Positions 2-56,100 of a DNA stretch of 64,000 bases are shown in pieces. Every line of letters begins with the position of its first letter. Positions within the stretch are counted from its first letter, which is position 1. The stretch spans positions 14,632,001 through 14,696,000 of the forward strand of contig NC_134025.1 of NCBI RefSeq assembly GCF_964204645.1, given 5' to 3'. Both the position numbers and the translations under genes were made by a program. The stretch is from Tubulanus polymorphus. Its lineage: Eukaryota; Animalia; Nemertea. The notes under the pieces are model-generated. The model saw nothing but the letters and a program-made list of their open reading frames with translations. It ran no database searches and had not been told where the DNA came from.

Positions 2-3000
2 GTAAAAAAACCAACTTCAAAAACTAAATCCATTTCAAATAAACCTTACATGGAAAATGTTAGAAATTATATTGATTCACTAGAAATAAAAGATACAATT
101 GAAATTTTAGAAACATTACATAGTAAAATTGGTCCTGCAGCTATTATATTTAGATTTTTTAAAGGAACAACAATAGAAGATTATAGTAAATTTAATGAAA
201 TAATAGAAAAAATACTAGATTTGATAACAGATGTTGAATATCCAAAAATTAGTATCTCTGGGAAAGTAAGTTTTATGAAGTCAGAAGAAAAAATTAATTA
301 TAATATTCAAACACTCTCTGAAGAAATAATTTCAAAAACACAAATAAAAGAGAAGTTAGAAAAAATATTAAATGAATTTAAACGTCATATTGAAGAAAGA
401 TATTTTGAGGGTTCTGGCTTAACATTGAATGAAATTATATATTTAGATTTAAATGTTTATAATACAAAAAGAAACAAAACATCAAAAAGTAATAAAATGT
501 TTAAAAATGATTCAAACTTTACAACAGAAAAGGATATTAAAGCATCATCTTATATTAAATTACCATTTTCAACAAAAGCAGTAATAAATATTCAAAATGA
601 AGATAATGAATGTTTTCTATGGTCAATTATTAGTTGCTTACATCCAACACAAGAAAATGTTTGTAGAATAACAGATTATCGGAAATATCAAACATTATAT
701 AAAATTGATCAATATCCAGTAACTATAAAAATGATTCCTAAAATAGAAAAAGTTAATCATTTAAAAATAAAAGTATTCGAATTAATGCAATTACCAAAGA
801 CAAAAGGTGAAAATATTAAAGATTATACATTGGAAGCTTTATATTTAACAGAATATTATGATGATGAAAATGCTATAGATTTGTTATATTACAAAAAAGA
901 TGAAAATGAACATTTTATGTGGTTAAAACAAATAGATTTATTCTTTAGAACAGAAAGTGATCATCATCATAAAATTTATCTATGTAGAAAATGTTTATCT
1001 AAATTTATGACTGAGAATACATTATTAAAACATAAAGAATTATGTGATAATAAAGATTTTTGTAAATTAATAATGCCAACAGAAAAAGATTGTAAGTTGA
1101 AATTTACTAATCATAAATTTAAGAATATTGTTCCATTTGTAATTTATGGGGATTTTGAATCGTTGAATAAAGAATTAACTGATCAAGATAGAAAAGAAAT
1201 ATATAACAAAAAGCAATTATTAAAATCAATGGATAAAGGAAATGAATTAAATGAAGATATAATTCAAGACCCACCAATTATAAATACAATTAAAAAAGTT
1301 CACCAAAGAGCTGCTGCTTATGGAATTTACATAAAATCAAATTATCCTGAATTATATGAAAGTCAATATATTTCTTTTAGAGGTGAAAATGTAGTTAATG
1401 ATTTTTGCGACAAAATGATTGAATTAGAAAGTGATTTTGCAAAATTATTAAACAAAAATAAAAGAATAGTTATGACAAAAGAAGATGAAATTGATTTTAA
1501 TTATGCAACTCATTGTTGTTATTGTGAAAAACGTTTTTATTCATTTGATAAAAAAGTTAGAGATCATGATCATTTAAATTCAAAATATCGTGGAACTGCT
1601 CATGAAGATTGCAATTTACAAGCTAAGAAAGTTAATTTCGTACCAATATTATTTCATAATTTATCAGGCTATGATACCCATCTATTTATAAAACAATTAT
1701 CAAAGAAATTGGGTACAATTAATCAAGAAATAGAAGAATATAATGCTATGAATGGTGTAAATGTAAGAAAATATGATTTTAAACTATTAGCTAAAACATC
1801 TGAAAATTATATTTCATTTCAATTTGGTTGCATTAGATTTTTAGATTCTTATAGATTTCTAGCAAGTTCATTAGATAATTTATCAAAAAGTTTAGTTGAT
1901 AATGATTTTATAATAACTCGATACTATTATCCAAATGACCAAGATTTTAAATTATTGAGATATAAAGGTGCAATTCCTTATTCATTTTATAAAACACACA
2001 ATGATTTTAATGTAACAGAATTATTAAAAGATCAATTTTATAATCAATTAAAAGAGGAGTATGTGAAAGACGAAGTGTTTAATAGAACATTAAATATTTG
2101 GAACCATTTTAAGATGAAAAATCATGGTGAATTAGTTGATTTATATTTAAAATCAGATGTTATGATATTGGCTGACATATTTGAAAAATTTAGAGAAGTT
2201 AATTTGAATCATTTTAATGTTGATCCTTGTTATTGCTACTCTAGTCCTGGTTTAACCTGGCAATGTGGTTAAAAATATACAAATGTAGAATTAGATTTAT
2301 TAAAAGAACCAGATATGGTTTTATTATTTGAAAAATCAATTAGAGGTGGAATTAGTGGTGTTATGGGAGATAGATATTTTAAGGCAAATGATGAATATAA
2401 ATTATTATATATTGACGCCAAAAATTTATATGGTTGGGCAATGATGCAACCTCAACCATATAAAAATTTTATATTAACAGAAGTTGAAAATGATGATAAA
2501 ACTAATTGGGAAAGCGCAATTATGAGTTTAGAAGATGAAGCACCAATTGGTTATTTCTTTGTGGTTGATTTAGAATATCCTGAAAATATAAAGTTTAAAA
2601 CAAGAAACTTACCTTATTGCCCAGAACATTTAACTGTAGATGATAGTTATTTAAGTGAATACCAGAAGAAAATGAAACCGAAAGATCATGTTTTTACAGA
2701 AAAATTAATACTTACTCAAAATAATAAATACAATTATATTGTTCATTATAGAATGTTAAAATTTCATCTAAAACAAGGAATCAAATTAAAGAAAGTACAT
2801 AGATATATTGAATTTAATCAATCGAAGTGGTTAGAAAAATATATAGATTTTAATACTCAACAGAGAACCATATCAAAAACAGACTTTTAAAAAGATTTCT
2901 TCATATTAATGAATAATAGTTTTTATGGTAAAACATGTGAAAATATTAGAAATAGAAATGATATTGAATTAGTAAATAATTCTGAAAGATTAAGACATTT

Positions 3001-4726
3001 ACAATCAAGTCCTAGACATTTAGGAAATAAAAGATTTGAAGATTATTTAACAGCAGTTAAATTAAAAAGAACTTCAATGAAATTTAATAAACCAATATTT
3101 ATAGGTTCAACTATTTTGTTTTAGATATATCAAAATTATTAATGTATGATTTTATTATAATGTTTTACAACCACTTTTTGGGGAAAAGCATATTGAAATA
3201 TTATATTTTGATTCTGTAACAGCTGACACCCCAATAGTATTAAAATGTAATAATAAAATATTGGTAAGAAGAGTTTCAGAAATAATTCCAAAACAAAATG
3301 AATGTTATATTTCATATGGTGAAAAAGAATTAATACAAATAAATGGATTAATGGATGTTTGGACAAGAAATGGATGGAAAAAATTAAAGAATATTATTAG
3401 GCATAAAACAAATAAGAAAATCTATAGAGTTAGAACTAAATTAGGATTTGTAGATGTTACAGAAGATCATAGTTTAATTAAACGAAATGGTGATGAAATA
3501 AAACCAACTGATATAAAAATTGGAGATGAATTATTACATAAAAGATTTTTCCAAAGAATGAATCATATGTCATTTGATGAAATTATTGATAATATTTATA
3601 ACATAGAACCCGAAACATTAGAAGAAAAAGAATATTTTATCAAAGGATTTTTCATGGGTGATGGTTCAGCAGGTGTGTATAATTATGTTTGGGGTAATAA
3701 ATATTGTTGGTATTTATGCAATCAAGACTTAAAATTATTAGAAAGAATTAAGAAATTCTGTGAAGAAGTTTATCCAAATAAAACATTTAAAATCATGGAT
3801 GTTATGAAATCATCAGCAGTTTATAGAATACTTGTAAATAATCCTAAAAATTTTGCTATAAAATATAATGATGAATTCTATATTCATGCAATAGTGAAAA
3901 GTAATACTTCAACTAAAGAAAAGATAGTACCAGATTATGTATTAAATGCAAAAAATAATTTAAGAAAATGGTTCTTCATTGGATTCTATGCCGCAGATGG
4001 CACTAAAAAATTTACACAGGATAAAAAGATAACCTTTGCACAGAAAGGAAAAGTTGCTATATCAGGATTGAATATATTATGTAATTCATTAGGCTTCAAT
4101 ATGAATATTGGGTTGATTAAATCTAAACCAAATTGTTTTAATTTAAGGCATGCAGAAAAAGAATAAACAGAAGAAGTTAAAGATTTATTTGAAATATATA
4201 ACCCAACTGACTATGTTTATGATTTATCAACAGATGATGGAACATTCAATTCCCATTAATCCAAAAAAATACCGACGGTTACATACTAAAAATCAAGACA
4301 AATGACATAACAAAAGACTTAAAAACATTTAAACATCATTTTGATTTTAGCAATTATCCCAAAGATCATGAACTATTTAGCAATGATAATAAAAAGATTC
4401 CTGGTAAGTTTAAAGATGAATTAGGGGGCGATGAAATGATTGAATTTGTTGGGATAAGAAGTAAAATGTATAGTTACAGAACAAAAGATCATGAAGCTAA
4501 AAAGTTAAAAGGAATAACAAAACATGTGGTTGATAAACATATAGAATTTCAAGATTATATAAAGTGTTTATATAAATCAATTGTAATGAAACACAAAATG
4601 AATTGTTTAAGATCAGAAGATCATGAGATGTACATTAATGAAGTTGAAAAAACTAGTTTAAATCCATTTGATGATAAAAGGCATATTTTAGATGATGGTA
4701 TAAAAACATTACCTTATGGTTATTAA
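2..4726 (+). pseudogene. Protein-primed family B DNA polymerase (pPolB) with OTU-like protease region, Zn finger, EndoVII/HNH insertion and an intein; disrupted
   Basis: Frame is open to the window edge upstream of ATG 50. Motifs: NEDNECFLWS, YGDFES, FHNLSGYDTH, RFLDSYRF, SIRGG, YIDAKNLYGWAM, MNNSFYGKT, YFD|TDG, GKFKDE, RSKMYSY, KLKGI. In-frame TAA at 2270, 2888 and 4164; frameshifts near 3120, 3151 and 4250. Confidence 0.95.
3213..4270 (+). other. Intein with LAGLIDADG homing endonuclease inserted in pPolB motif C (YFD|TDG)
   Basis: Block A SVTADTPIVLK starts at 3213, directly after LYFD. Block B VDVTEDHSLI; LAGLIDADG-like FIKGFFMGDGS and FFIGFYAADG; block F YVYDLSTDDGTF; C-terminal PLIQKN (N at 4268-4270) followed by +1 Thr (TDG) and resumed polymerase sequence. 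Confidence 0.9.
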
Positions 4727-11234: not shown

Positions 11235-12488
11235 ATGAGTGGGAGTTATATAAGTCCTTCTAAGAATTCTAGAATATCTAATGCTATTAAAGCAGAAAGA
11301 TCACATCATATAATTACTCATAACCCTTCTAATATTAATCCTGATGAAACTTTATATGTTAGAATTCCTAGATGAACACAAAATACTTTTTATGTTCCAA
11401 ATAGTATTTATTTATCAGCCGATATAAAAGTAATTGGTCATGATAATAATTATGTTGTTGATAATGTTGGGAGATATTTGATTAAAAAATTAACTATAAA
11501 AATTGGTCCAGAAACAGTTTTCTCATTAGATGATTATAATTTATTTATGCATTATAAAGATTTATGGTTAACTAAAGAAAATAGAATTAATATGATATTT
11601 CAGGGTATTCAATCGGAAAACCATAATAAATTAAGATCAGGAGCTAATGACGCAATAGTAACTCGTGCCACAGATAATTTGATTAAAAAGATTTATGGAA
11701 GCAAATATAAAATCCCATTAGACTTTGAATTGATAAATAACAATGCACCTTTATATAAATACGCAATTCAAGAATATATTATATTTGAGATAACATTTGC
11801 TCCTGTTAATGAAATTGTATTATCTAGCGTTGTTAAAGATATGGGTTATAAATTATCGAATATATGTTTAGAATATAACACAGTAACTAATGAAAATATT
11901 GCTAGCACAATTCAAACTCAATACAATCAAGGATTTTCATTATTATATGATTATATTGATAAATTTAAAACTGTAACTATTAATGCAAATGATGAAATAA
12001 TTAATGAGAATATTAACTTCCCAAGAAGATCTATTAAAGGTATATTAATATTTTTTACCATTGCAACATATACTAATGGTGCAATAAAAGTTGATAATTA
12101 TTATAATCCTGAAATAACAAAAGTAGAAATGACTATCGAAGGAATAGCAAATAAAATATTTTGTCAAGGAATGAGAATGATTGATCAATGGCCAGAAATT
12201 AGAAAACATTTTATGAATGAAAAAGTAAAATCATTTGAAAATTGTAATATTAATCAAATTGATTATTATACCGGCAATAAATATGCATTATGGTTAGATT
12301 TTAGAACAACAGAGGATAATTCATTACATGGTTCTGGAAAAAAACTACAGAACACTAAAGATGGAATACAATTATTCATGAAAAAGAAAAGAGGAGACAA
12401 AAATTTTAAAATGCACATTTATATTATATCTGATGCACAAAAAAACTGTAAATTCACAATTAGATGGTATTCAATATTAGAAATATAA
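11235..12488 (+). pseudogene. Major capsid protein (double jelly-roll, hexon-like); premature stop and probable C-terminal frameshift
   Basis: ATG 11235 is in frame with ORF 11478; HNPSNINPDETLYVRIPR*(11373), VDNVGR, KIPLDFE, NICLEY, ALWLDFRTTEDNSLHGSG, IYIISDAQ; about 415 aa, next to integrase and ATPase. Confidence 0.75.
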
Positions 12489-12510: not shown

Positions 12511-13638
12511 ATGGGTGGTAAAAAAACTCCTAATACTAAAGAACAATATTTAAGAAATTTATATTACAACCCTGAGAGTTCGTTTGCTTATTCTTCTACC
12601 AAAAATATATGGAGTAAAGTAAAACAAGATAAATTAGATAAGATAATCCCACAAAATTTAGTTAAATATAAAGATATAAATGAATTTATGTTAGAACAAC
12701 CAACATATACAACACATAAAAAAATTGTTAGAAAATATAAAACTCGTAAAACTATGGTAAGTTATGTAGATCAACAGTGGCAAGGAGATTTAATTGATAT
12801 GAAAAATGTTAAGAAAGATAATGATGATTATTGGTGGTTATTGAATATAATTGATATTTTTAGTCGTTATGTATGGAGTTTCCCACTTTATAGAAAAGAT
12901 GCTGTACAAACATCAAATGTTTTAAGAAAATTTCTTTCGGATGATAAACTAAAACCAGAAAAAATACAATTTGATGATGGAAAAGAGTTTGATAATTCAC
13001 TTGTTCATGAACTCTTAGATAATCATAATATTAAATATTTTTCAACAAAATCGGATAAAAAAGCTGCAGTTGTTGAACGATTTAATAGAACATTAAGAAC
13101 AAGAATGTGGAAATATTTTACAGCAAATAATACTTTTAAATAGATTGATGTTTTACCAAAATTGAAAGAAGGATATAATAATTCTTATCATTCTTCTATT
13201 GGAATGAAACCTATTGATGCTAGAAAACCTGAAAATGTTGAAATTGTTTGGAATAATTTATATGGAGCATTTCTTGTAGATGATTTTGGTCAACCTAAAT
13301 TTAAAGTTGGTCAAAATGTTAGAATTTCTAAGTATAAAAAGATATTTGATAAAGGATACGATCGAAATTTTACTAGAGAAATATATAAAATAAAAAAGGT
13401 AATAACAACAAAACCATATGTCTATAAATTAGAAGATTTAGATGGTGAAGAAGTTGATGGGTATTTTTATGAAGAAGAATTGAGTTTAACTACTGAAAAT
13501 CTAGAACAAGAATATAAAATTGAAAAAGTATTAAAAACAAAAACTGTTAAAAGAAAAAAATATTCTTTAGTAAAATGGGTTGGATGGCCAGATAAATTCA
13601 ATGAGTGGATATTATCAAGTAAAATTAAAAATATATAA
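12511..13638 (+). pseudogene. Retroviral-like (rve) integrase with C-terminal chromodomain; one premature stop
   Basis: DDE motifs QWQGDLIDM, QFDDGKEF, VERFNRTL; YNNSYHSSIGMKP; chromo YKIEKVL..LVKWVGWPDKFNEWI; in-frame TAG at 13141 joins the two track ORFs. Confidence 0.92.
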
Positions 13639-14247
13639 ATGAATAAGGAATTATTTATATTTGAGCCTCATAATATGTTAATTTCTGGTGTAACAAATTG
13701 TGGAAAAACTTATCTTATATTAAATTTATTATAAACTGTTTATAAAAACTATTTTGATAATATAGTATTATTTTGTCCAACATATGAATTTAATCAAACT
13801 TATGATAGAAATATTACTAGAAATAATAAATTTATTATATTAGATCCTAAAACAGTAAAAGAAAATTTAGATAATTGTATTAAAATAGCAATAGATATTT
13901 ATAAAGGATCAAATACATTATTCATTATAGATGATTGTGCAAATTTACATGATTCAAAAATTAGAGAAAGTGAGTTATGTTATTTAGCTTTTTCTGGTAG
14001 ACATTTTGGGATAACAACTTGGGTTTTAAATCAAAAATATAATTCAATTGTTAAAGACTTTAGAGAAAACATTAGATTTCTAGTTTTATTCTACAATAAA
14101 GATAGAAAATCGATGAAAAATGCACTTGAGGAAAATGATATAATTCCACATGATTTACATAATGAATATATGGATAAGTTGAAAAATATTAAAAGATCAA
14201 AATTACTATTTAGATTACAACACCCATTTAAATATGAATTTATTTAA
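13639..14247 (+). pseudogene. A32/FtsK-like genome packaging ATPase; one premature stop (not in the ORF track)
   Basis: Manual translation: Walker A ISGVTNCGKT, Walker B LFIIDDC, SGRHFG, LNQKY; TAA at 13732; ends TAA 14245-14247. Confidence 0.88.
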
Positions 14248-14522
14248 ATTCAACTAGCTTGTTAATCTAGTTGAATTCTAGTTACATTCTAGTTGAATTC
14301 TAGTTATTGGTAGTTGGAACAAAAATCAACTAGATTTAACAATATTTTAACTAGCTTGTTAATCTAGTTTAATTTTAGTTACATTCTAGTTGAATTCTAG
14401 TTGTTAGTAGTTGGAACAAAAATCAACTAGATTTAACAAGAAATAAACAAAAACAACAATATTTCAACTAGCTTGTTAATCTAGATGAATTCTAGTTACA
14501 TTCTAGTTGAATTCTAGTTGCA
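14248..14522. repeat. About three copies of a ~100-bp CTAG-rich unit with internal dyads
   Basis: Repeated caactagcttgttaatctagttgaattctagttacattctagttgaattctag; CAACTAG/CTAGTTG are reverse complements. Confidence 0.85.
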
Positions 14523-15454: not shown

Positions 15455-16618
15455 AAAAAAAGCAAAAATATAATTTTTTTTAATTAATTGAATATTAATT
15501 GAATATCACCGTGTGGGTGCCATACGGCACCATCTCACTACTATTGTTTATCTATAGGAGCAGTAATTATAACTGTCCAGATAAGTCATTCCGGATTCTC
15601 GATAATAAATCCTAAAACTGAAAATAAATTCAAAGAAACGACTGGTGGAAATACTATTTCATAAACACATATATTTTATTCTACAATCATTATCGATTTC
15701 CACATTCCAAGCCGCTCCAGAGAGGAGCGGTAAGTTATGCGTGGAATGCAGGAATCAATAAAGTATAATACAACATCTGTCACTGTGTGTCATTAACAAC
15801 AGCTTAATGACGCAATTGAAATTCCGACAAACGTAATGCATTGGAAGCCTATACAGTATGGCTAAACTGCTACACGTCTCATGAGTTGAAATATCCATTA
15901 TTTCTGATTCCACATCCATCTATCTTCACTTTCTTGATTCAATGGTCTTCATTTTGTTATCTAAAAGATAAATATCTAGCGTAAAATAAAACTAACTTGA
16001 AGTTGTAGTTGTAAAATATTAATTACAGCACTTAAACATAACCATTTGTGGCGCATCTTACCAGGATAAGTTTTACATGTTTAACGTTTCCCAACGCCTT
16101 AATAACAACAAAAACAGTACTTACATTTATAACTGTAAACTCCTAAAATTGTGTTTATAGAGAGAATATCCTATACGTTCCTATGCTTATGTGCTGCGCG
16201 TTTATAACTGCCAGTTATTCACTAGCTAAACACTGTCTGGTGCAACAGATGTTCCTTCCTTTGTAATATAATTGATTAATCCTTTTCAACTGAAATAGAA
16301 CATTCGATCAATATTCAAATGAGATACACCCTATTCAACTGAATATAACGTGCGACAGATGCTTTTGTAAACAACCTAATACAATTGCATATGGGCGGTT
16401 TGACATGTGTGTGTTGTATGTACTGCGTGCTTATTATATAACTGCTAGCTATCCAATATAACAACAACGTTGCGCAACACCTGTTTGATTGATCAATATT
16501 CAAATGAAGCACTCTCTTATAATAACATGTAACAGATGTTTGACTGTATGATTGTAGTTGTTTATAAAACGACTAAGGTCATTTTGGATTCTAGATATTC
16601 ATTATTTTTATTTCTTAT

Positions 16619-16872: not shown

Positions 16873-17990
16873 TTATTAGGGTTTTCTGTTATTTCACAGA
16901 AAACCCTATTGATATCCGCGTGATTATTAGGGTTTTCTGTTATTTCACAGAAAACCCTATTGATATCCGCGTGATTATTATTATTATTATTTTCTTCCAC
17001 ACTATTTTTACCAAAAGAACATAGGCTTTGTTACCTTACCGCTATTTCATATACAATCCATATAATATCGTTCAGCTCACTGAGATCTACAAATAGCCCG
17101 CGTGTTTTTTCACGAATCATCGTTACAAAAGCGCTGTCGGGCCGTAAACATCGACAATTTAGCCCCATTCAATGGGGCGACATGTTTTTCGAGTCGTCAT
17201 CCCGAAATCAACCCGCAGGCCGACTGTCACTTCGATTATCAATTCAAGTATAAATGAACTAATTTATTGCCGCAGACTTCAAATTCAGTCGCGGTCTTCA
17301 AACAGTGATTTTAACAATAGCCCATTTTCCTCATCAAATCATATTACCGATACACTGGAAATTTACTACTTTAGATTTTAAAAGCACTGTCGAGCCGTAA
17401 ACATCGACGAATCGACGTGTGTTACTACATCGTCGTTCCGGGGATCAGCTGCGAGTTTCTCCTCATCATGAGAATCAAATCGAGTACAAATTAATTTATA
17501 ACTACCAGTGATTTGGCTGCGGGCGTCAAGCAGTTAGTTTAGCAATACCTATTTTTCTTTACCAAATTAACCGTGTATTTACTAAGATAAATCATAAGTG
17601 TACCGGGGAGTCGTAGGCCTAAACTAAACAAGAGATATAACGGAGAAAAGCTGTTATGTCGACGAGGTATCAAAATAAAAGAATATATTACTTTATTCGG
17701 CCGCGGGCTTCAACCTCTATATCAATACCATCAATACTCTATATTTCCTACAGTACATACCGATCATTGTCAAATGCACAAGGTATTTACTAAATACAAG
17801 TATATAACACACTCCTATCCGTATGCTGGACTCACACTTGACATTCGGAGTAAGCGTTCGCTGTGGGGGAAAGGGATCGTTCGCTGTGTCGCTTGAAGTG
17901 TTTATCGAGTTTTACGCGACCTTAAGGCTTAAGTATGGTGGCTGATCAAAATGATGACAAAATCAAAATCATTGTTTTCTCGCGTTATTT
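16873..17990 (+). mobile_element. Non-autonomous Helentron-like element family A, 5' part
   Basis: T-tract, duplicated TATTAGGGTTTTCTG..CAGAAAACCCTATTG inverted module and (ATT)n, then ~1 kb shared with 17990-19010 (-) and 38719-39835 (+). Confidence 0.65.
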
Positions 17991-19010
17991 TTTTGTTGTT
18001 GTTTTGTCGTAATGTCGCCCTCATTTGCATATTCGTGTTTTTTTATCTTATCAGCCACCAACTAAAGCCTTAAGGTCGCGTAAAACTCGATAAACACTTC
18101 AAGCGACCCAGCGAACGATCTCCTTTCCCCCACAGCGAACGCTTACTCCGAATGTCAAGTGTGAGTCCAGCATACGGATAGGAGTGTGTTATATACTTGT
18201 ATTTAGTAAATACCTTGTGCATTTGACAATGATCGGTATGTACTGTAGGAAATATAGAGTATTGATAAATGGTTGAAGCCCGCGGCCGAATAAAGTAATA
18301 TATTCTTTTATTTTGATACCTCGTCGACATAACAGCTTTTCTCCGCCATATCTCTTCGGCCTGTTTAGTTTAGGCCAACGATTCCCCGGTACACTAAAGA
18401 TTTATCTTAGTAAATACACGGTTAATTCGGTAATGAAAAATAGGTATTGTTAAACTAACTCCTTGAAACCCGCAGCCAAATCACTGGTAGTAATAAATTA
18501 ATTTGTACTCGATTTGATTCTCATGATGATGAGAAACTCGCAGCTCATCCCCGGAACGTCGATGTAGTAACACACGTCGATTCGTCGATGTTTACGGCTC
18601 GACAGTGGTTTTAAAATCTAAAGTAGTAAATTTCCAGTGTATCGGTAATATGATTTGATGAGGAAAATGGGCTATTGTTAAAATCACTGTTTGAAGACCG
18701 CGACTGAATGTGAAGTCTGCGGCAATGAATTAGTTCATTTATAATTGAATTGATAATCGAAGTGACAGTCGGCCTGCGGGTTGATTTCGGGATGACGACT
18801 CGAAAAACATGTCGCCCCATTTAATGGGGCTAAATTTTCGATGTTTACAGCCCGACAGCGCTTTTGTAACGATGATTCGTGAAAAAACACGCGGGCTATT
18901 TGTAGATCTCAGTGAGCTGAACGATATTATATGGATTGTATATGAAACAGCGGTAAGGTAACAAAGCCTATGTTCTTTTGGTAAAAATAGTGTGGAAGAA
19001 AATAATAATT
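17990..19010 (-). mobile_element. Helentron-like family A, 5' part, inverted copy
   Basis: Reverse complement of ~16977-17945; near-identical conceptual ORFs (MGRHVFR..) on opposite strands. Confidence 0.7.
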
Positions 19011-26271: not shown

Positions 26272-29200
26272 TCAGTCTTTTAATAATTTCGTCCAATTTC
26301 TAATCTTTCGCTGAGCGTTGGCTGCGGCCAGCCTGGTCGCACGCGTTTTCGGTTGATTTGTATCGGTAATCGTACCGGTATCCGATGAATCATCGACAGA
26401 TTTCGCGTTAATTTCCAGCGGATATAATTTCGATACGGGTCGGTTCGTACGGCCGGTACTTGTTCGAATATCCGCTGATCGCACAAGTCCATCGGCGCTA
26501 ACGTTTAATTTCTCGACGAGTGCCATACGCCAGTGTATTCGCTTCTTGTTGTCCTCGTGCACTAAAACAATGTCGCCAGTTTTTATTTTGTTTTCGAGTT
26601 TCCCGTTTCCGAGTTTCGCACGTTCTCTGAGCGCTATCAAGTATTCACGGCTCCAACGTCGTTTGAACGAACTCAAAAGTTCTCGCAACGTTTGATTACG
26701 GCGTTGAATATCGGTATACGAAACGGTAAAGTCCTGATCATTTAGATCAATGTCCTCATACGGCAACAGAGTTAATTGGCGACCGCATAACAGTTGTGAC
26801 GGAGATAACGGAAGAGGCTCGTCTTCCGTACTATACACATACGTGAGAGGTCGATCGTTGATCGTAGCCTCAATTTCACACAAGAGAGTTCGTAATTCAT
26901 CGTCCGTGACGATGCTTCTACCGAGAATCTTTCTGAGGCATTCTTTCGTTACGCCTATCATCCTTTCCCAGAATCCCCCGAACCAAGGGGCTCGTTTGGG
27001 AATGAATGTCCATCTGATTCGATTGTTCGCCATATATCTCGCGACGATCGGCGAATTGACGATTTCTTCTATCTCTACGCAAGATTTTAGAAAGTATGAC
27101 CCGTTGTCACTGATCAGTTCATGCGGTAACGATCTACGCGAAACGAATCTCCGGAATGCTCGAATAAACGCGGCAGGTGTCATATTAATGACTGATTCGA
27201 GATGGACTGCTCGCGTGGTGACGCATGTAAACAGACAAATGTAACGTTTATGGCGCTTGTCAGACGTGCCTCTGACCCAAATTTCGCCTGAATAATCTAC
27301 TCCGGTAACAGTAAAGGGCGGAGCATCCGTAACGCGCGAAACTGGAAGTGGCGGTGGTATAGGTCTGCAGTAGGCGGAGCCTCGTACTATAGCGCACGTA
27401 ACACATTTCCTGAGAACTGATTTTACGACTTGTCTAATTTTCGGTATCCAGTATCTTTGCCTGATAGCAGTAACAGTCCCGCCGATTCTTAAATGTTTAC
27501 ACCTCCTGTGGTGAAACAACACGATCAAACGCGTAATATGGTGATCTGGTAAAAGAATGGGAAATTTGGCATCGTAGGGTAAAGACGAATTTTGCACACG
27601 ACTGCCGCATCGAATAAGTCCCCTGTCATCGATAAAGATTTTCAGTTGTTTGACCAGGTTACCGCGTTTGAGTTTCTGGTCTGTCAATTGATTCAATTCA
27701 GATTTAAAGTATGTTTTCTGTAAGTCCATGACCCATTTGTTTTCTGCAGTTTTTATCTCATCGGCGGTGAGTTCCCCGCTAACCCGATCGGCTGGATTCC
27801 TCAGATTATGTAAATATCTGAGGAAATAAGCGGTAACACGCACGAGTTCGGTCAACGATCCATATTTTTCCGGATCAATGATCTTTAAGATACCCGCTTT
27901 TTCTAACTGTTCGTGTTGTATCGACATGGTAGTCTCGTCGACAGATTCATCAGTTTTAATTTCGTTATCGGCTTGAAATCGCGAGACTGGCCAATCGCCG
28001 ACTTTCAACCAGTCGGGCCCGTGCCACCATAGTGTTGAATTGGCCAGTTGATGAGTGGTTATACCGCGTGTTAGTAGATCCGCTGGATTATCTTGAGTCG
28101 GTACGTAATTCAATTCCACATCGAGATTGTCTAGCTTCAAGGAGTTTATCTCGTGCACCCGATTTTGAACGAAATACGGAAGTCGATTTTCACTCCTAGT
28201 CCTACTTAGGACTATCTCGCTATCGGACCAGATAATCGCTTTGCTGAAATTGTAGCATGGATTGAGCGCATCGAATGAATATTTGATCAAACGGGCGCCG
28301 ACGACGGCGGCCATTAGCTCGAGGCGCGGTAACGAGAGCTGTTTAACGGGTGCAACTCTGTTTTTCGCTATGACAAGCGCGGTGTTTTTCCCTTGACGTA
28401 GATAAACGGTGGCTCCGTAGCCACGTGAACTCGCGTCCACAAAGCAATGTAACTCAGTATCGGTATCCTCCGACGGCGCAGAAAAATACTTCCGGTTAAT
28501 CGTTATTTTTCTCGCATTTTGTAGATCGCGGTACAAAGTTTTCCAGTTATTGCTCACCTCGTCTAGTAATAATTCATCCCACGAGACATTCGCCTTCCAT
28601 AATTCTTGGATGAATATTTTTGATTTGATGTGAACCGGTGATAACAGTCCTAACGGATCATAGAGACTCGCCACGCTCCTGACGATTTCGCGCTTCGTAA
28701 TAATTTCTGGTTCGCTATGCTCGATCGCTTGTTTGTTTTTAAGCCTGTCCTGATTGACATCCCACAGGAGTCCTAGGTTGCTGACAACGTCATGTCCGTT
28801 CAATAAGTTGTCTTTACTCGCAATATGTCTGAGGTTTTCGTTGTTACTAGTCCACTCACATAGTTTAAATCCTGCGTCGGACATCATCCGATTCGCGTTA
28901 TGGTAATAATCGATCGCTGTCGATTCGTCTTTCACCGACGTAACGACGTTGTCTACGTATATGCTCGATTTCATGTCGTTAGCTACCGTGCTCTTATCTT
29001 TGTCCAAATGTGATTTTATGACGGCATTGAGAATAAACGGCGAGCACGCTGCTCCGAATAATACAGATTTAAATTGATACGTAATGAATTTGCTTTCGGG
29101 GTCGTTTGGATCGCTTAGCCAGAAAAATTTCGTGAATTTCCGGTCTGGCTCGGCTAGGCCCACTTGAAGGAAGGCCTTTTCGATGTCGCTACTAAGTCCA

Positions 29201-31614
29201 ACGTCGCATGTACGAAAGTTCATCAAGATCGAACCAAGATCGTTAAGCAGTAGCGGTCCTTTTTCCAGGCAGTCATTTAAACTCGGAGACTGACGCGTAC
29301 GGAAGCTACAATCGTAGACGACGCGAATTGGTGTTGTAGCTGAGTCTTTCTTCACCGAGTGGTGCGGTATATAATGCCCTTCGGATTCGTTTTCCTCGTG
29401 GATCGACTCGATGAATCCACGCGCTATTTGATCTTCGATAATTCGATCATAGATTTTTCGGGTATCGTTATTTAGTTTCCTGACCATCGCTCGCGTTCGG
29501 TTGGCTGTGTTCAGTCTATTGGTCGGTAATGGAGGGTGTTCCGGCCTCCATGGTAGCTGCGCAACGTATTGGTTTCCCGCCATTTCGATACAATCCGTCG
29601 CGTAATTTTCAAACGTAAGTTCTTCGTTTATCGGGTGTTTTATCCCGAGTGTTTCGACTCTCCAAAAGTTTTCGAGTTGGTCTCGTTCATGAGTATCATC
29701 GGTGAGGATAAAGTTCGCGTAGTCACGACGGTCGTGACTCGAGTTTTTTAGCGGACCCGAAAGAAGATAACCGAGTTTTGACGCAACCGCTGTGGGGCCG
29801 TTGCCCCTGACGACTTTGTCCTCAACTAAGGACCAGTAGTAGTCGGATCCAATTAATAGAGCGATTTCGAACGATTCACGACCGCTTACTGGGTGCGCCA
29901 GTTTCAGACCCGATAGATAATGTAAATTACGTGTATCTTTGATGTGATTACTCATAGGTGTCCTAATGTTCGATTTTACGAGTGCGCTTATCGGCACGTC
30001 TCCAGTTTCGGTTTTAATGGCTAACTTGACCCGGTCGTATTTCCTTTGTTTAGATTTAGTATCTCCAAAGATCGAAAGATTCAGTATTTCGCTCGACTCC
30101 GGTTTCAAGTTTAATTTGACGGCTGTTTCCTCCGTGATCCATGTTCGGGTCGAGCCTTCATCAAACAATATGCTGACGGTCTCGGAGTTTTGATGTTTTT
30201 CATCAGTAATTTCAGCAACAGCTGTCTTTAAGACGACTGGCGTCGATACGGTGATTGAGTCTTGTGAATTTAGCACGCCGATGTACATTTGCCTGTCATC
30301 GCATCGCGGGTTCTGATCGTTATGACCAGCTGATTGTGGTTTTTTGCCGCATAGAGATGTATGGTGTTTATCTGAACATACGGAACAGCTATAGCGTGAC
30401 CTGCAATCTCTGGCTTTGTGATTTTTTCTCAAACAATTTCGGCAGAGATTTTCTCTTTTCACTATATCCATCCGTTTTTCCAGAGTGTTATAGATCAGAC
30501 AATCCCTTGATTTGTGGTCTTTCTTGCAGTAGTTACATTGAATTTTATAATTACGGTCTAGACGGCTTGTTTGATTTCGTTTTCTGTGATGAATTAATAA
30601 TGACGTGTCTGTGGTTTCGTCTTCTGAATCGCTGATGAGCACATTTTGAATGGCTTGTCCTGCCAGACCCGCTTGAATCTCTTTCTGTAACGCTTTCTTC
30701 AATTCAGTTAAATTCCATGCTGAATCACCATGGTCGCGTGTGATCTGAGTTTTAATTCCCGATGGGAGTTTCTCGAATATGACTGGAATCAGGAGATCCC
30801 CATAGCTTTCCTCGGTCTTACCGAGAGATTTTAGACCCCTGATATAGCCTTCCAGTTCATCGTAGAACTTTTTCATCTGTTGTACATTTTCGCGTGGTTT
30901 TGGCAATTCCCACAATGCCTTCATATAAACGTTGATCAATTTATGAGTTTGTCCGTACCTGTTTTTCAAAAGTTCAATGGCTTCGACGTAGTTGTTATTG
31001 GTCAGTGATAAGCCCTCGACGCATCGGGCCGCTTCTCCGCTGAGTTGCGCACGAAGATACTGGAATTTTTGGATGTCGTCTAATCCGGTATCGTTGTGGA
31101 TAGCTGATTCGAATGCATCTATAAAGCCGATCCATTGTAGTAAATCCCCGCTGAATGTCGGTAAATGTAACTTAGGTAGATTGACTTGCCTTGATTTGTT
31201 GTTAATCGGTTGATGAGTTGTCGTTGTCGTCGGTTTCGTGTCGTTATTGAACGTTTCAATAAAGAATCGATATCTTTGTATTTCGATAATCCGTTCGAAT
31301 GCGAAATCATCTGCTTCTGCGATAGATGATTGTAGATTTTCATCTGGCGTCAACGAAAGGATTGTTTGATCTAGTTCTTGTATGAGGTTTAGCTTTGTGA
31401 CCGCTGATGATATGATTGCTACCAGATCTTGAACTTCGACTAGGCCTACTTCTGTTGATCCGGATTGTAGGCTCTGGTAGACCTCTTCTGCACGATTGAG
31501 GTATTTAGATAACTGCCCTCGGTGGGCCAACCGAGATGCTGTAGGACGCTTCGTTTGGTCCATTTCGTTTTGACGCTCAGTTTCGTCATACGCATTTTCC
31601 GATGTCGTCGACAT
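26272..31614 (-). CDS. BEL/Pao Gag-Pol polyprotein, uninterrupted (~1780 aa)
   Basis: Likely start MSTTSEN just after the PBS; LPKLHLPTFSG gag, three Cys/His knuckles, protease LFDEGS, RT SDIEKAF/YVDN, RNase H FVDASS/WSDS/NPAD, integrase GVDY/SDNG/GGFWERM. Confidence 0.95.
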   Translation of the reverse strand: MSTTSENAYDETERQNEMDQTKRPTASRLAHRGQLSKYLNRAEEVYQSLQSGSTEVGLVEVQDLVAIISSAVTKLNLIQELDQTILSLTPDENLQSSIAEADDFAFERIIEIQRYRFFIETFNNDTKPTTTTTHQPINNKSRQVNLPKLHLPTFSGDLLQWIGFIDAFESAIHNDTGLDDIQKFQYLRAQLSGEAARCVEGLSLTNNNYVEAIELLKNRYGQTHKLINVYMKALWELPKPRENVQQMKKFYDELEGYIRGLKSLGKTEESYGDLLIPVIFEKLPSGIKTQITRDHGDSAWNLTELKKALQKEIQAGLAGQAIQNVLISDSEDETTDTSLLIHHRKRNQTSRLDRNYKIQCNYCKKDHKSRDCLIYNTLEKRMDIVKRENLCRNCLRKNHKARDCRSRYSCSVCSDKHHTSLCGKKPQSAGHNDQNPRCDDRQMYIGVLNSQDSITVSTPVVLKTAVAEITDEKHQNSETVSILFDEGSTRTWITEETAVKLNLKPESSEILNLSIFGDTKSKQRKYDRVKLAIKTETGDVPISALVKSNIRTPMSNHIKDTRNLHYLSGLKLAHPVSGRESFEIALLIGSDYYWSLVEDKVVRGNGPTAVASKLGYLLSGPLKNSSHDRRDYANFILTDDTHERDQLENFWRVETLGIKHPINEELTFENYATDCIEMAGNQYVAQLPWRPEHPPLPTNRLNTANRTRAMVRKLNNDTRKIYDRIIEDQIARGFIESIHEENESEGHYIPHHSVKKDSATTPIRVVYDCSFRTRQSPSLNDCLEKGPLLLNDLGSILMNFRTCDVGLSSDIEKAFLQVGLAEPDRKFTKFFWLSDPNDPESKFITYQFKSVLFGAACSPFILNAVIKSHLDKDKSTVANDMKSSIYVDNVVTSVKDESTAIDYYHNANRMMSDAGFKLCEWTSNNENLRHIASKDNLLNGHDVVSNLGLLWDVNQDRLKNKQAIEHSEPEIITKREIVRSVASLYDPLGLLSPVHIKSKIFIQELWKANVSWDELLLDEVSNNWKTLYRDLQNARKITINRKYFSAPSEDTDTELHCFVDASSRGYGATVYLRQGKNTALVIAKNRVAPVKQLSLPRLELMAAVVGARLIKYSFDALNPCYNFSKAIIWSDSEIVLSRTRSENRLPYFVQNRVHEINSLKLDNLDVELNYVPTQDNPADLLTRGITTHQLANSTLWWHGPDWLKVGDWPVSRFQADNEIKTDESVDETTMSIQHEQLEKAGILKIIDPEKYGSLTELVRVTAYFLRYLHNLRNPADRVSGELTADEIKTAENKWVMDLQKTYFKSELNQLTDQKLKRGNLVKQLKIFIDDRGLIRCGSRVQNSSLPYDAKFPILLPDHHITRLIVLFHHRRCKHLRIGGTVTAIRQRYWIPKIRQVVKSVLRKCVTCAIVRGSAYCRPIPPPLPVSRVTDAPPFTVTGVDYSGEIWVRGTSDKRHKRYICLFTCVTTRAVHLESVINMTPAAFIRAFRRFVSRRSLPHELISDNGSYFLKSCVEIEEIVNSPIVARYMANNRIRWTFIPKRAPWFGGFWERMIGVTKECLRKILGRSIVTDDELRTLLCEIEATINDRPLTYVYSTEDEPLPLSPSQLLCGRQLTLLPYEDIDLNDQDFTVSYTDIQRRNQTLRELLSSFKRRWSREYLIALRERAKLGNGKLENKIKTGDIVLVHEDNKKRIHWRMALVEKLNVSADGLVRSADIRTSTGRTNRPVSKLYPLEINAKSVDDSSDTGTITDTNQPKTRATRLAAANAQRKIRNWTKLLKD

Positions 31615-31633
31615 AATCCTGGTCACGGCACCA
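31615..31633 (-). promoter_or_regulatory. Primer binding site complementary to tRNA-His 3' end
   Basis: TGGTGCCGTGACCAGGATT on the minus strand, 2 nt inside the 5' LTR. Confidence 0.8.
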
Positions 31634-32114
31634 AATGTGATGGAGTGACTATCACCACAGAGAGTTGACCAGATCCGAAGGAGTAAAGTCGAAGAGCGTG
31701 TTGTATTTTGTGAATCTAAACAGCATCTAACTTTATTACTACAGTATAGGGTTACAGTATAGTACACATGGCGCGAAACAGCAACCAATCATATAAGAGA
31801 GACATCAACGAATCATATAAGAGAACCAACACATGTCGTTCTCGACACATCTTACATTTAGACATGTCTTTAAATGACGGCTTGTCCCGTGGAAAATGAG
31901 CAAAAAAGCGAAATTTGTCGCGAAAACGTCACCATATGTAGACATATTCATGTGGACTTCACGCGATATATCGACATAAATATGGAGACTTGTCGAGTTT
32001 GAACGCGACAACTCGAGGCCCTTTATCGCTTCCATACTATATCAGATTAATCGACTTCAAAATAGGCGCTATAAATAACGTTATAAATTGGCCTAATTAT
32101 TCAAAAGCTAATAA

Positions 32115-49450: not shown

Positions 49451-50187
49451 CTTTAAGAAAAATATCATAATTACAGTGTTGTTATTATCATGTATCGATG
49501 GAGATCTCCAAGGCAAGGAAAGGGTAGATGTATTTACATTTGGCAAACATATTATTCATTTAGTACATACGCACATAAGGGAGGGAGCGGAGGGGGAATT
49601 AAAGAGCACTCAAGGAGAGAGGGGGCAATATCTGTACAGTACAGACCACAATCTTTTTCTGAATACGCCAGAAGAGAGAAAAATTGAGTTGAATGTAACG
49701 AGGTGTTGGTTCAGCCTGCCATACATTAGAAATATTCACTAAATATCGATTCCAAAAGCCTCAAAACCCCCGAGGACTCATCACAATTGATAGGGAATGA
49801 ATAAAACCAGTATCAATGACCAACCCCAGTATCCCTGTATAATAAACAAGATGTCCATAGACATACAGACTTGGTCGAGATAATCGGAAGTTCCAGTTTG
49901 GGAAAACCATGATGGTGCGGGGTCTTATAATAGTTGTATAGTTAACTATTCTACTATTCTACTTCCCTATTCTACTATCCTTACATTTCTTTAGAATAGT
50001 TAACTATTCTACTATTCTTTAGGGTTAGGGTTTAGAAAATGTCAACTAGAGGGTAAAGAGGTTAGGGTTTAGTGGATTAGGGTTTAGAGGGTTAGGGTTT
50101 AGAGGTTTAGGGTTTAGTGGATTAGGGTTTAGAGGTTAGGGTTTAGGTTTTAGAGGGTTAGGTTTTAGAGGGTTAGGGTTTAGATAA

Positions 50188-53100
50188 TGTGCTGTAACAT
50201 GGTTACATCGTAATGCATGCATTTAGATTTAGTGCTTGTCTGTAGTGAGATCTACACTTTTTTATACAGTCAGTTTAGTGAGTCTGTAACCGCGGTTTAG
50301 CTCCAGAGTCTATATACGTATTTTTTAGTTCCCCGGAGTTTGTTTACTTCCGTATACGTGTCTATTTTTATTGTCTGCTAATACTTGCTGTAACTAGGAA
50401 AATCTTCCATACATCCGCGTATCTGTATCTCTTCGCGTATCTACCTTTGGTACTTGCCCACGTACAGTGTAAGCATTTATCCTTTATTCATTGTCCTGAG
50501 ATTTTGTTTATTTAGTCGTTTCAGTTAATAATTAAAATTATCTCTGTTATTTCAGTTTTTTACCGTCTCGAATCGACGGCGTATCAATAAATACAGACTT
50601 CTCCGGAATTGCCTGTTTGTTTGCGTTTTCGTCGGTTTCCGGTTCGCTATCTGCCGCACGGGCAGAATAGTAAAAAAACTGTACCAGCAAGAAACGCCGC
50701 CACGGGCACCGTTGTACGACGCTGTCAACACAACATCGCCATGGACTCGGTCGAAGAATCAGTCTCCCACGACGACGTGTCCACACGGACCCGAAAGTTG
50801 ACGAAAAAGGGAGAGGAAGCCTACAGCCAGAGAAAAGAAAAATATTCCGAAGATATAGAGCGACTCTGGACCGTATGCAACGCCATGTTGCTAGAAACAG
50901 ACAACCCTCCCACAGAGGTAAGGAAATGTCTAGAACTCGAACACAATGTAGTTCAATCATACTCCCGGTACCACCAATTGAACGATGAATACCTCAAATT
51001 CCTCGAAGCTCAAAGGACAGACCTGGCTACTCAAGATATAGAGGTCATCGCTCCAGTAGCCGACATCCGCCAAAGGATGTATGAAACGGCCATAGCCGCA
51101 CTGCGCGAGACATGGCGAAACAGTCCTGCAAGATCATCGCTCACAAAATCTTCAAGAAGTGAGGCCAGCTCTAGGACTTCAAGCGCATCCAGCCTAGCGA
51201 GAAGGACACGAGCAAGAGCTGAAGCGGCAAAGGCTGCCGCGGCCTTTGCAGAAAAACAGGCCCTAATTTCTAAACGAGAAGCAGAGCTCCAAGAAACGGT
51301 AGAGCGGGAAGCCTCCCGCAAAAAAGCAGAAATCGAACAAGATTCAGCCATCGCGACCCGAAAGAAAGCCGAACTCAAAGCCGAGATGACACTCCTGGAG
51401 ACCCAGAAACAAGTCGCAGCTTTGGAGGCTGAAGCCCGAATTCTAGAGGCAGAGAATGACCTCGAGCTTGATCTGGACCACCTACTTCCGGCTCAGGACG
51501 AAAACCCTTTCGAACGGGTAAAAGACTTTGTTGACCGACATAGCTCAGGAAGCGAAACGCGTCATACAGAAGCCGAGGCCATGAGCCATCAACCAAGGGC
51601 CAGTGGTGCCACCAACGATCCTGTATACACAGAGTCTGGAAAGCTCGCCAATGGCCAAGAGCCACAGTCGAATACAGCAAAAACCGTAACTTTCGATCGT
51701 CAAAGAAAACAGTCTTCTCACTCTCCTATAGAAGACTTCGGACTGCCGTCAACTTCGTCGCCATTTAACAAAGGCGGACTCAACCCTGTCGACGCCAATG
51801 GAACCCTCGGTTACTCCGAATTAGACGTTTGTGCACCGATCTTCGTGCCTGGCCAGGCTCAACGTCCCTACCAGCCAAGTTCCTCGAGATTTGCGTCTCC
51901 CTCAACAACCGCCCAGGATCATGATACGGCATCGGCCATCACAAAATTCTTACTGAGGAAGGATTTGGTATTCTCGCGCCTCAGCACGTTCAACGATAGA
52001 GCCGAATCGTACCATGTGTGGAAGTCAAGCTTCGAGAGTGTGGTTGAAGAGCTCGCAGTCTCCGACTCCGAGCAACTCGATCTGTTGGTTAAGTGGCTCG
52101 GTACCGACTCGGCCAGACACGCGGTCAGTATCCGTGCATCCAATGCAGAGAACCCCACCAAGGGCCTACAACGTCTCTGGCAGAGACTCGACGAGAGATA
52201 TGGATGCCCTGAGATGATAGAAGCGTCGCTAAAAGCAAAACTGGCAGATTTCCCTAGACTTACAAATAAAGACAACAAACGTCTATATGAACTCTCAGAT
52301 ATTCTGTACGAAATCGAATACATCAAGGAGAAACCCCAGCTCAGGAATCATTTAGCCTACTTTGATTCGTCATCAGGAATCAAACCCATAGTGGCTAAGC
52401 TACCCTATGGTCTGCAGGAAAGATGGACGACTAGAGCGGTCAGATATAATTCACAAAATTCAACCTCCTTTCCACCCTTCACCGAGTTTTCTGCATTTAT
52501 TAGAGAAATGAGTCGCATAAAGAACAACCCAGGATTCACCTACGACACGGAGCCAGTCCCGACACAAAATCGGAGTACCGCATGGCCGATGTCCCAGCCT
52601 AGAACCAGAGTCGGCGTCCACAAAATTGAAGCATCACAGCCGACTCAGCGATCAGGCGACAAACTGGATCGGTGCATACTTCACAACACCAAGCACTCAT
52701 TGGACGAGTGTCGTGGATTCCGGTCAAAATCTCTCGAGGAGCGTAAGAAATTGCTTCAAGATCACAAAGTTTGCTTCAAATGCTGTGAATCTACGAAACA
52801 CGTCAGCCGCGACTGCAAAGCATTCGTCACATGCAGAGAGTGTGGAAGCAACCAACACTCCACGGCCCTCCACGTAAACAGGAGTAGCGTCAGTACAATA
52901 CCTCAACTCACAACTAGGCCCGTACAACATCAAGGCGGGGAGCCAGAAGACAGTTACAAGTCCCCAACCGTAAATGCTGTCAACGCTTCCTGCACGGAAG
53001 TCTGCAATGATTATGAGGGCAAATCCTGCGCCAAGATTCTCCCCGTTAACGTGTTCCATGAAGAACACCCGGGAAACGTACGTAGGATGTACGCCATAAT

Positions 53101-56100
53101 CGACGACCAGAGCAACAGGTCGTTGGCTGCCCCCGAATTCTTCGAACTCTTCGGCGTGCGGGACAAGCCCGAAACATACACGTTGTCCACCTGCTCAGGA
53201 AAAGTAATTACCTCAGGCAGACGAGGAAAGGGTTTCATTATTGAGTCAGTTCACGGCAGCGAGACTTTGGACCTACCAGTCCTCATCGAGTGTGAAAACA
53301 TACCGAACAACAGGAACGAGATTCCAACACCAGACATTGCTGCAAGGCACCCTCATCTGGCGGAGATAGCAAAACAGCTCTCGCCATTGGATGATTGTTG
53401 CAATGTTCTTCTTCTAATTGGCAGAGACTTACCGGAAGCACACCATGTGCGCGATCAACGACTAGGACCATCGAGGGCGCTATATGCCCAACAACTCAAA
53501 CTGGGTTGGGTCGTGGTCGGTGAAACTTGCCTAGACAAGCAACACGCACCGAACGAGATCAGTGTGAACCGAACGTATGTGACCGCCTCGGGACGTCCCA
53601 CGGTCTTTGAGCCATGCGAGAATAGCTTCAATGTACGAGAACTCCCGCTTCGGGAAGATGACAGTACCTACGTCGGACAGGACATTTTCGTGAGGACCCC
53701 GGACGACAATAAGCCAGGAATGTCATACGACGACAAACGATTCATGCGCCAAATGGAAACCGAGTTCGTAAGAGATGCTACCGGAAGTTGGGTTGCGCCC
53801 CTACCATTCCGAACTCCGAGGCCCCTACTGCCGAATAACAGGGAACAGGCCGTTCGAAGAGCAAAAATGTTAGACACAAGCCTGAAGAAGAACTCCACAA
53901 AAAAGGGACACTTCGTCGAGTTCATGGGGAAAATCCTCGATAACAACCACGCAGAAGTTGCTCCACCTTTGCTCGAGGGTGAAGAATGCTGGTACCTGCC
54001 ACTCTTCGGGGTATATCACCCGAAAAAACCCGATCAGATACGAGGAGTTTTCGACTCATCCGCTAAATTCCGTGGTATCTCCTTGAACAATGTTCTGCTG
54101 ACAGGTCCCGACCTGTCCAACAGCCTACTGGGGGTACTCATGCGCTTTCGAAAGGAAACAGTCGCAGTAACAGCAGATGTCCAACACATGTTTCATTGCT
54201 TTATCGTTCGCGAGGACCATCGGAATTATCTACGTTTTTGGTGGTACAGGGATAACAATCCAGACAAGGAACTTATCGAATACCGTATGCGCGTTCACGT
54301 CTTTGGCAATAGCCCTTCGCCAGCCGTAGCCACACTCGGCCTAAGGAAAGCGGCTCAAGAATCCGAAGCGAAATACGGTAGTCACGTCACGGAGTTTGTC
54401 GCGAACGATTTCTACGTCGATGACGGACTCACTTCACGGCCTACAGTGATCGACGCTGTCACCATCATGAAAGACACCCAAAACGCACTCAGAGAATTCG
54501 GTAATCTGCGACTTCACAAGTTCGCGTCTAATAGTGCCGAAGTGATGTCCGCATTTCCACCCGGCGACTTGGCAAGCAATCTCAAAGACCTGGATCTCGA
54601 CGCCGACAACAAACCGCTCCAGAGAAGCCTCGGACTCATCTGGGACGTAAACACCGACAACTTTCTCTTCCAATTGACATCTGAAAAGAAACCTGTCACC
54701 CGAAGAGGTATGCTATCAACGATAAACAGCATCTACGATCCACTTGGCTTTTTGGCTCCTGTGCTGATTCATGGGAAACTCCTTCTCAGGAACTTAGTGT
54801 CAGAGACGGTCGATTGGGATCAACCCTTTTCGGATGAGATAGCTGCCGAGTGGGACAATTGGAGGGATTCTCTGAGAGCTATCGAGAATCTGCGCATTCC
54901 ACGCACCTATGTGACCAAACTAAGCGGAGCTGTTCGAAGGGAGCTGCATGTTTTCTCGGATGCCTCGGAAAAGGCCATAGCGGCAGTTGTGTACCTGCGA
55001 ACCGTGGACAAGGCAGCAAACCACAAACTTGGATTTGCTGGGCAAAGCGAAAGTTGCACCCATCAGCGGCCACACCATCCCTAGATTAGAATTGTGCGCA
55101 GCCGTGCTTGCCGTGGAACTTACGCAATGTACTATGGATCAACTGCACATGCCTATCGACGAAGTTAAATTTTATAGCGATAGTCGAGTTGTTCTCGGCT
55201 ACATCAACAACGACATCCGCAGATTTCACATTTACGTGGCAAATAGAGTTGAGAAGATCAGGAAGTTCAGTAGTCCGGACCAATGGAACTACGTGGCAAC
55301 GGATTCTAATCCTGCAGATTCCGCGACTAGATCATTCTCAGCATCCGACATCCATGACAGCGACTGGTTATTAGGACCGAAGCAACTTCTGGCTGTTCCA
55401 GAATCGACAGATACGACGCATCACGTCCTCGTAGAGCCTGACAAAGATAAAGAAATTCGTTCCGCGGTCAGCGTCGTAAAAACAGTTACGATTGTCAACG
55501 CGCGCACCTGGAACGACAGATTCCGCAATTTTTCGTCATGGATGGGACTTATACTGGCTATTGCTACCCTGAAGCATGTCGCCCGCATAACTCACAAGGC
55601 CGAGATGCAAGACACATCAACACCGATTGACGTTCGTCAAGACACCGAGATGTTCGTGCTCAAGGAAGTGCAAGGTGAAGCCTTCAGTGAGGAGATTAGC
55701 TGTCTCCAAAACCTGGAGCCTGTAAACCCAAGAAGTCCAATTGCTAAACTAAACCCGTTCTTGGACGAGCACGGGCTTCTCAGAGTTGGTGGTCGAATCA
55801 CGAATTCTAATCTTCCACTAAAGGAAAAGAAACCATTAATCATACCGGGTCGGCACCACATCGGTACGCTCCTTATTAGACACTACCACCAACAGGTTAG
55901 GCATCAGGGAAGGCATTTCACCGAAGGGGCTGTACGAGCGGCAGGACTTTGGATCATCGGTGCCAAGCGAATGATTTCTTCGGTGATCCACAAATGCGTC
56001 ACTTGTCGGAAATTGCGAGGGAAACTCGAGTTTCAAGTTATGTCTGATCTGCCCGCTGATCGCCTGGAACCATCTCCCCCATTCACTAACGTAGGGGTCG

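Follow-up and report, generated by a model that had tools for sequence, protein, structure and literature searches.

A LAGLIDADG endonuclease intein at motif C of protein-primed DNA polymerases of Polintons, with filled and empty alleles

Inteins that include an endonuclease occur in microbes and giant viruses. The intein of the Mimivirus family B DNA polymerase (PolB) is a pol-c allele, located at YGD/TDS in motif C of the polymerase (here and below the slash marks the insertion point). According to the available part of its description (PMC549080), it is about 350 aa long and contains a serine as first residue (Ser1), a TxxH motif, a LAGLIDADG domain and a terminal Asn followed by a threonine at position +1 of the extein; the same part of this source also mentions an intein in an insect iridovirus. 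Viral-like DNA polymerase inteins have been assigned to nuclear scaffolds of Klebsormidium, Tetrabaena and a labyrinthulomycete in the accessible sections of PMC10710043. Polinton protein-primed polymerases (pPolBs) are known to contain HNH and VSR nuclease inserts (PMC10748475; PMC11071308, both as excerpts), and in the latter excerpt these are suggested to derive from intein invasions. Finally, Hint domains are present in the Hedgehog proteins of animals (PMC7765530, in part).

We analyzed an insertion that disrupts motif C (YFD/TD) of the pPolB encoded by a decayed Polinton within the window, by which we mean the whole 64-kb stretch of DNA that was studied. As far as the accessible portions of the papers above allow comparison, the insertion shares with the Mimivirus intein all the features listed for the latter, including the site, as the initial annotation had proposed. 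Two differences stand out: the Mimivirus host protein is a Pol-delta-like giant-virus enzyme, whereas the host protein here is the protein-primed PolB of an integrating Polinton, and the Polinton intein, unlike that of Mimivirus, is found in many chromosomal copies, filled and empty. The cases of Klebsormidium, Tetrabaena and the labyrinthulomycete likewise concern an intein that entered a nuclear genome inside an endogenous virus, but their hosts are algae and protists, whereas the present one is a multi-copy Polinton family, likely of an animal, with allele polymorphism. The HNH and VSR inserts resemble the window intein in that nuclease domains are placed in Polinton polymerases; in the excerpts at hand they are described without a splicing domain, whereas the window contains a full Hint plus LAGLIDADG intein that splits the catalytic motif. 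The words "intein", "Hint" and "LAGLIDADG" have no occurrence in the available text of PMC10748475, nor has "intein" in that of 10.1101/2025.04.19.649669. The Hedgehog domains have the Hint fold in common with the window intein, as well as the chemistry of the N-terminal acyl shift, but they lack an endonuclease and do not ligate two exteins; blocks F and G are present in the window intein, for which an exact empty allele also exists.

The intein spans positions 3213..4270 of the + strand, from Ser1 to the terminal Asn, and consists of a Hint domain and a LAGLIDADG endonuclease. The YFD of the extein finishes at 3212 and is followed by block A (SVTADTP, 3213..3233), which provides the Ser nucleophile. 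Block B, with TEDH as its TxxH motif (3459..3470), is invariant in intein alignment A2. The first and second LAGLIDADG motifs (IKGFFMGDG, 3639..3665, and FIGFYAADG, 3975..4001) both have their acidic residue intact. Blocks F and G (4212..4270) are spread over two frames; block F reads YVYDL (4212-4226), and block G runs into the extein as KN/TDG (4265-4279), with Lys instead of His as penultimate residue. All of these elements are on the + strand. The split motif C, the SVTADTP start, the KN/T end, TEDH and the two LAGLIDADG-like motifs had been pointed out by the initial annotation, and each was found at the position given there.

Profile searches corroborated the assignment. The intein scored above the curated cut-offs of TIGR01445 (27.5 bits, cut-off 24.5) and PF14528 (26.5 bits, cut-off 22.5), so that both the Hint and the LAGLIDADG part were recognized; for PF14890 the score of its truncated frame was under the cut-off (E 2e-6, 28.2 bits, cut-off 35.8). 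The PI-PkoII intein structure 2cw7 was matched by sequence (E 5.8e-7), and a single-sequence structure model of the intein had a pLDDT of 36. The sequence matches far exceed chance. Ser1, TxxH, the block F Asp, the terminal Asn and the +1 Thr are all seen in the window, though in a broken frame, and an unbroken frame runs through extein and intein in the database proteins P0001, P0002, P0005 and P0285. Together with an in-frame insertion at a conserved site and exact empty alleles, these are the features of a canonical class 1 intein. The insertion at YxD/TDS and the grouping with other motif-C PolB inteins, in a tree built without archaeal pol-c inteins, identify it as a pol-c allele. A penultimate His is absent from four of seven inteins (Lys in the window, P0004 and P0005; Ser in P0001) and present in P0002, P0003 and P0285; since many PolB inteins of the set also end in KN, this His is not obligatory in the family. 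By its sequence, the window insert qualifies as a canonical motif-C intein that includes a LAGLIDADG endonuclease.

The AT-rich Polinton that contains the intein makes up the first 15.5 kb of the window (GC content 0.23 inside, versus 0.42 beyond 17 kb). Its gene set comprises the pPolB, an rve integrase with a chromo domain, an A32 ATPase and a likely capsid gene, all on the + strand. The N-extein (2..3212), whose 5' end is clipped by the window edge, is 63-65% identical to the intein-free pPolBs P0174-P0176, and the C-extein, beginning with the +1 Thr (4271..4726), is 74-79% identical to them. As anticipated in the initial annotation, the two flanks rejoin colinearly with these proteins, which read YFD/TDS. 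Downstream are the likely major capsid protein gene (11376..12488; judged by position and size, and a weak PF16903 match, E 0.022), the retroviral-type integrase with chromo domain (12511..13638; PF00665, E 1e-10; PF00385, E 3e-5) and the packaging ATPase of the A32 type (13735..14247; PF04665, E 3e-6). No protease gene was identified within the 64-kb window. The likely right terminus is at 15534..15542, where the minus strand reads AGTAGTGAG, which we take to be an AGT-type Polinton end; the opposite, left end falls beyond the window. Three 97-nt repeats (14249-14520), built of TCTAGTTGAAT units with internal palindromes, separate the ATPase gene from the final ORFs of the element.

The window copy had been described as dead on account of a stop (4164-4166) and a frame change near 4250 in the intein, and this holds. 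Further breaks are present in the polymerase, with stops at 2270-2272 and 2888-2890 and frame changes near 3115-3150, and in the integrase, with a stop at 13141-13143. The window copy is a dead insertion whose breaks postdate integration.

Beyond the Polinton terminus, a long inverted repeat (17000-19010; arms of ~1 kb around ~17900-18080, by eye) is likely a host foldback or DNA transposon. There are two BEL/Pao LTR elements with long open frames, at 26272-31788 (-) and 50591-57023 (+), the former with a single 1838-aa frame and flanked, near 25668 and 31778, by short repeats that match each other. Repetitive DNA occupies 19400-47500, 50057-50184 and 57625-58085: extensive arrays of a 31-bp satellite, which run in both orientations, a satellite of 154 bp, and minisatellites that are degenerate and AGGGTT-like. 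BEL/Pao elements have a mainly animal distribution, and judged from those in the flank the host of the Polinton is likely an animal. It could be argued that the element is that of a protist, a symbiont or a free virus, joined by the assembly and not part of an animal chromosome, in which case the intein would still be real; no host gene was identified in the window. We consider this highly improbable: the contig continues from the terminus into 48 kb of satellites plus the two BEL/Pao elements, the many private breaks are typical of an old insertion, four runs under one species label contain about half (48-54%) of the sampled words, and the contigs that contain close relatives reach 1 Mb in length.

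The initial annotation had called for a search for intact intein-bearing and intein-free Polinton polymerases, and both were found among database proteins. A search with the intein matched 218 longer proteins, the top five of which (62-46% identity) are Polinton pPolBs; among the 120 listed, seven belong to the pPolB class. For the 22 matches of similar length, 17 of the 21 examined had a Polinton-borne intein as best match, and 11 of these 17 include pPolB extein. Six Polinton-borne inteins (P0001-P0005 and P0285; 339-354 aa) are unbroken. All six have kept Ser1, VDVTEDH, the block F Asp, the terminal Asn and the +1 Thr, as well as both LAGLIDADG motifs with their acidic residues, at a mutual identity of 40-65%. 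Searching with the P0001 extein gave 2444 matches; among the 120 listed, an intein is present in four and missing from 116. The closest exteins of the window among the matches listed, P0174-P0176, are empty. These results speak against a one-off capture into this element, as had been assumed initially: the intein is a member of an old clade that resides in many Polinton families, and it is closer to other Polinton inteins (42-62%) than to those of giant viruses (about 38-43%).

Filled and empty alleles coexist in two database families at 97-99.6% extein identity. The 15 listed of the 136 members of the P0002 cluster, mostly on contigs of 0.1-1 Mb, comprise seven filled alleles, six empty ones and two that end short of the site. 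Identity between filled and empty alleles (five empty alleles used) is 98-99% over residues 1-980. It is 92.5% in the last 60 residues ahead of the site, 80% in the first 43 past it and 95% farther on. The differences are concentrated at the insertion site, as homing would leave them. In addition, filled P0002 and P0003, which have 68% extein identity, both have the flank YMD/TDSFVLSV, which is missing from the nearest empty relatives of each. This shared flank fits a model in which flanks are copied together with the intein, or one in which the surviving empty sites are those resistant to cutting; under either reading it would point to an active endonuclease. In the P0004 cluster (15 listed of 121), filled P0138 and empty P0141 are 99.6% identical and have identical flanks.

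Two side observations concern these relatives. The P0433 protein cluster (55 members, including P0454, P0455 and P0457; ENA contigs of 19-825 kb) contains recurring frames of 362-365 aa that extend beyond the intein by ~10 residues at the start and by 4-9 residues at the end and largely keep both LAGLIDADG motifs. Possibly this is a free-standing intein/endonuclease gene in a non-autonomous Polinton family, or an intein at an ectopic site. The P0005 pPolB has, alongside its intein, an apparent nuclease insert (by eye) with a motif that we take to be VSR-like.

Filled and empty alleles were also seen in reads of DNA run X6, which has the same species label as the four runs mentioned above and about 12% of whose reads were examined. 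Thirty-nine reads with 28 different starts skip exactly 1058 bases; the skip has the same ends as the intein (3213..4270). In a further 14 reads position 3212 is followed directly by 4279, and at 3212 there are 86 loose ends whose continuation resembles the C-extein. Depth was ~440 in the flank versus ~250 in the 5' half of the intein, so that roughly half of the alignable copies would be filled, a rough estimate because related families also align. The empty-site joint was not listed in contig runs X1, X2 and X4; contigs drop such forms, and the joint therefore rests on the single run X6. Marine metagenome run X5 (share 0.06, 15 contigs) was left out of the analysis.

At the position of the stop codon 170 of 172 reads differ from the window, and many intein-bearing copies in reads of the same species label are without this stop. 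The stop at 4164-4166 is thus private to the window copy, and the intein family appears to be under selection. Among the 40 rows listed (31 further rows lie outside), 24 intein sites were available for a codon-position test. Nineteen of them segregate among copies, 13 at third codon positions (p=0.002); of the five sites private to the window one is a third position, and the contrast between the two classes is not significant (Fisher p=0.12). The alleles in these reads are unphased and include related families.

The origin of the intein was studied with a main tree of 58 of the 197 inteins, i.e. the nine Polinton rows, the nearest others by BLAST (two near-duplicates left out) and hand-picked representatives. 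The nine Polinton inteins form one clade (100/99) with a long stem, and its sister group (98/90) consists of eight inteins from PolBs of giant viruses and T4-like phages. Six of these eight are seen to end in G[FT]PLI[VI]KN, as Polinton inteins do. P0011, in the sister clade, is encoded at 100% on a giant-virus MAG contig (L001), and three further giant-virus MAG contigs (L005, L006 and L013) have the same ending; P0010, which resembles T4-like cyanophage polymerases (29-32%), shares it with P0302 and P0306. These giant-virus MAG and phage inteins occupy the same site, but they are only about 39-43% identical to the Polinton intein and their hosts are other PolB classes. With FastTree and all 197 inteins the Polinton clade was kept (95), but beside long branches and not beside the giant-virus/phage clade. 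A topology that forced the Polinton clade to group exclusively with four giant-virus-type inteins, picked post hoc from the tree, was rejected (p-AU 0.018).

The initial proposal of a giant-virus-type origin, with exchange between Polintons and Nucleocytoviricota, therefore stands in part. Kin outside Polintons are mostly Pol-delta-like, giant-virus-type PolB inteins, and such exchange is likely even though the narrow grouping failed; the sister clade also holds the T4-like phage inteins. No relative was found when viral and metagenome contigs were searched with the single window intein, whereas an alignment-based scan of them gave at least 160 rows. The 163 loci listed comprised 135 Pol-delta-like, 22 topoisomerase II and six unclassified ones, and among these matches none had a pPolB match. 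A large-DNA-virus source of the Polinton inteins is likely, and we infer from the trees that Polintons acquired the intein once, out of a pool in which giant-virus-type PolBs predominate, the donor being unsampled. Several independent recent pick-ups by Polintons from co-infecting giant viruses, for which the wording of the initial annotation leaves room in the case of this copy, might be suspected instead, considering that filled alleles are scattered across the extein tree and that related inteins are common in giant-virus MAG contigs. Against this, the nine inteins form one long-stemmed clade, retained with all 197 rows, and the closest giant-virus intein among the matches listed is only about 43% identical. 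This explanation is already largely refuted, and we give it the least credence of all. Nor does GC content give any sign of a recent entry: it is 0.25 in the intein and 0.23-0.26 in the extein, and because the two match, entry was not recent.

Besides polymerases, type II topoisomerases host the same intein family, at GD/S and QD/T (P0006, in which the intein is present twice, P0081, P0093, P0098 and P0100-P0102). These may represent a non-allelic jump to a D/TD-like site. The inteins of P0010, P0302 and P0306, at motif C of T4-like polymerases, belong to the same subfamily and group with giant-virus inteins, and intein exchange between phages and giant viruses is possible.

On an extein tree of 128 rows the nine filled rows require nine state changes, a count that does not separate gain from loss. 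For the main pPolB group, the branching of the intein tree roughly parallels the extein relationships, with congruent pairings of the window with P0001, of P0002 with P0003 and P0215, and of P0004 with P0285; this rough agreement points to long residence. P0005 departs from it. Its extein is about 22% identical to that of the window and its intein 46%, and the intein is nested beside the lineage of the window (99/91). At least one jump of the intein into a distant pPolB group is therefore inferred from these sequences. P0005 has a strong PF03175 match, and comparison with the Alpha and Beta classes of Polinton polymerase, as set out in the available part of PMC8502044, suggests that its polymerase belongs to the Alpha class and that of the window to the Beta class.

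These trees bear on whether the intein still homes. It might be an ancestral passenger that entered once and still splices but has lost homing, the empty sites resulting from repeated loss or from recombination with empty relatives. The congruence in the main group, the 116 intein-free relatives among 120 and the matching GC contents agree with this, and many losses of an ancestral intein would also fit part of the filled/empty pattern. Non-homing inteins, though, tend to lose their endonuclease domain, whereas all six unbroken inteins have kept both endonuclease motifs in spite of their divergence; moreover, flanks accompany the intein across families (P0002/P0003), and P0005 needs a lateral jump. 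We regard a passenger that no longer homes as unlikely.

What is observed is the anatomy of the intein, the precise position of its insertion, the coexistence of filled and empty alleles and a single Polinton-intein clade. In our judgment the probable explanation, with good confidence, is that the motif-C intein, when unbroken, is predicted to self-splice, and that its endonuclease likely cuts empty Polinton copies, into which repair copies the intein. By established intein chemistry, an acyl shift at Ser1, assisted by TxxH, would be followed by transfer to the +1 Thr and cyclization of the terminal Asn, which would restore the YxDTD catalytic site. The freed intein would then cut an empty site, and repair off a filled copy would convert it; such conversion could take place between chromosomal copies or between replicating viral genomes. 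The history would comprise a single ancient acquisition, out of the pool of motif-C inteins that large DNA viruses contain, and long residence in one pPolB group, sustained by repeated homing within and between related families. More tentatively, and with clearly less confidence, we put forward that the intein may be actively converting dispersed Polinton copies in animal nuclei. It would then combine a nuclear homing drive with protein splicing and large-DNA-virus heritage, and cross two major polymerase groups.

A literature search found no Hint-type intein described in a Polinton or an animal nuclear genome; the search included the available parts of PMC5784728, PMC12220804 and PMC3671162, while supplements, Repbase and InBase, which may mention one, were outside its scope. 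As a pol-c allele the intein is of a known type; what is new is the class of its host. The window copy itself is a fossil, and the interest lies in the family it comes from, which is polymorphic and apparently homing. With a family of homing inteins in chromosomal Polintons, the range of inteins comes to include protein-primed polymerases and, likely, the nuclear DNA of animals. These inteins also record an exchange of genes between Polintons and large DNA viruses, at the one motif common to all family B polymerases. Retention of the intein in a catalytic motif implies that these Polintons may still produce and splice their polymerase. Since both filled and empty alleles are present among many dispersed copies within one genome, the cycle of invasion, decay and re-invasion by a homing endonuclease becomes measurable in an animal.
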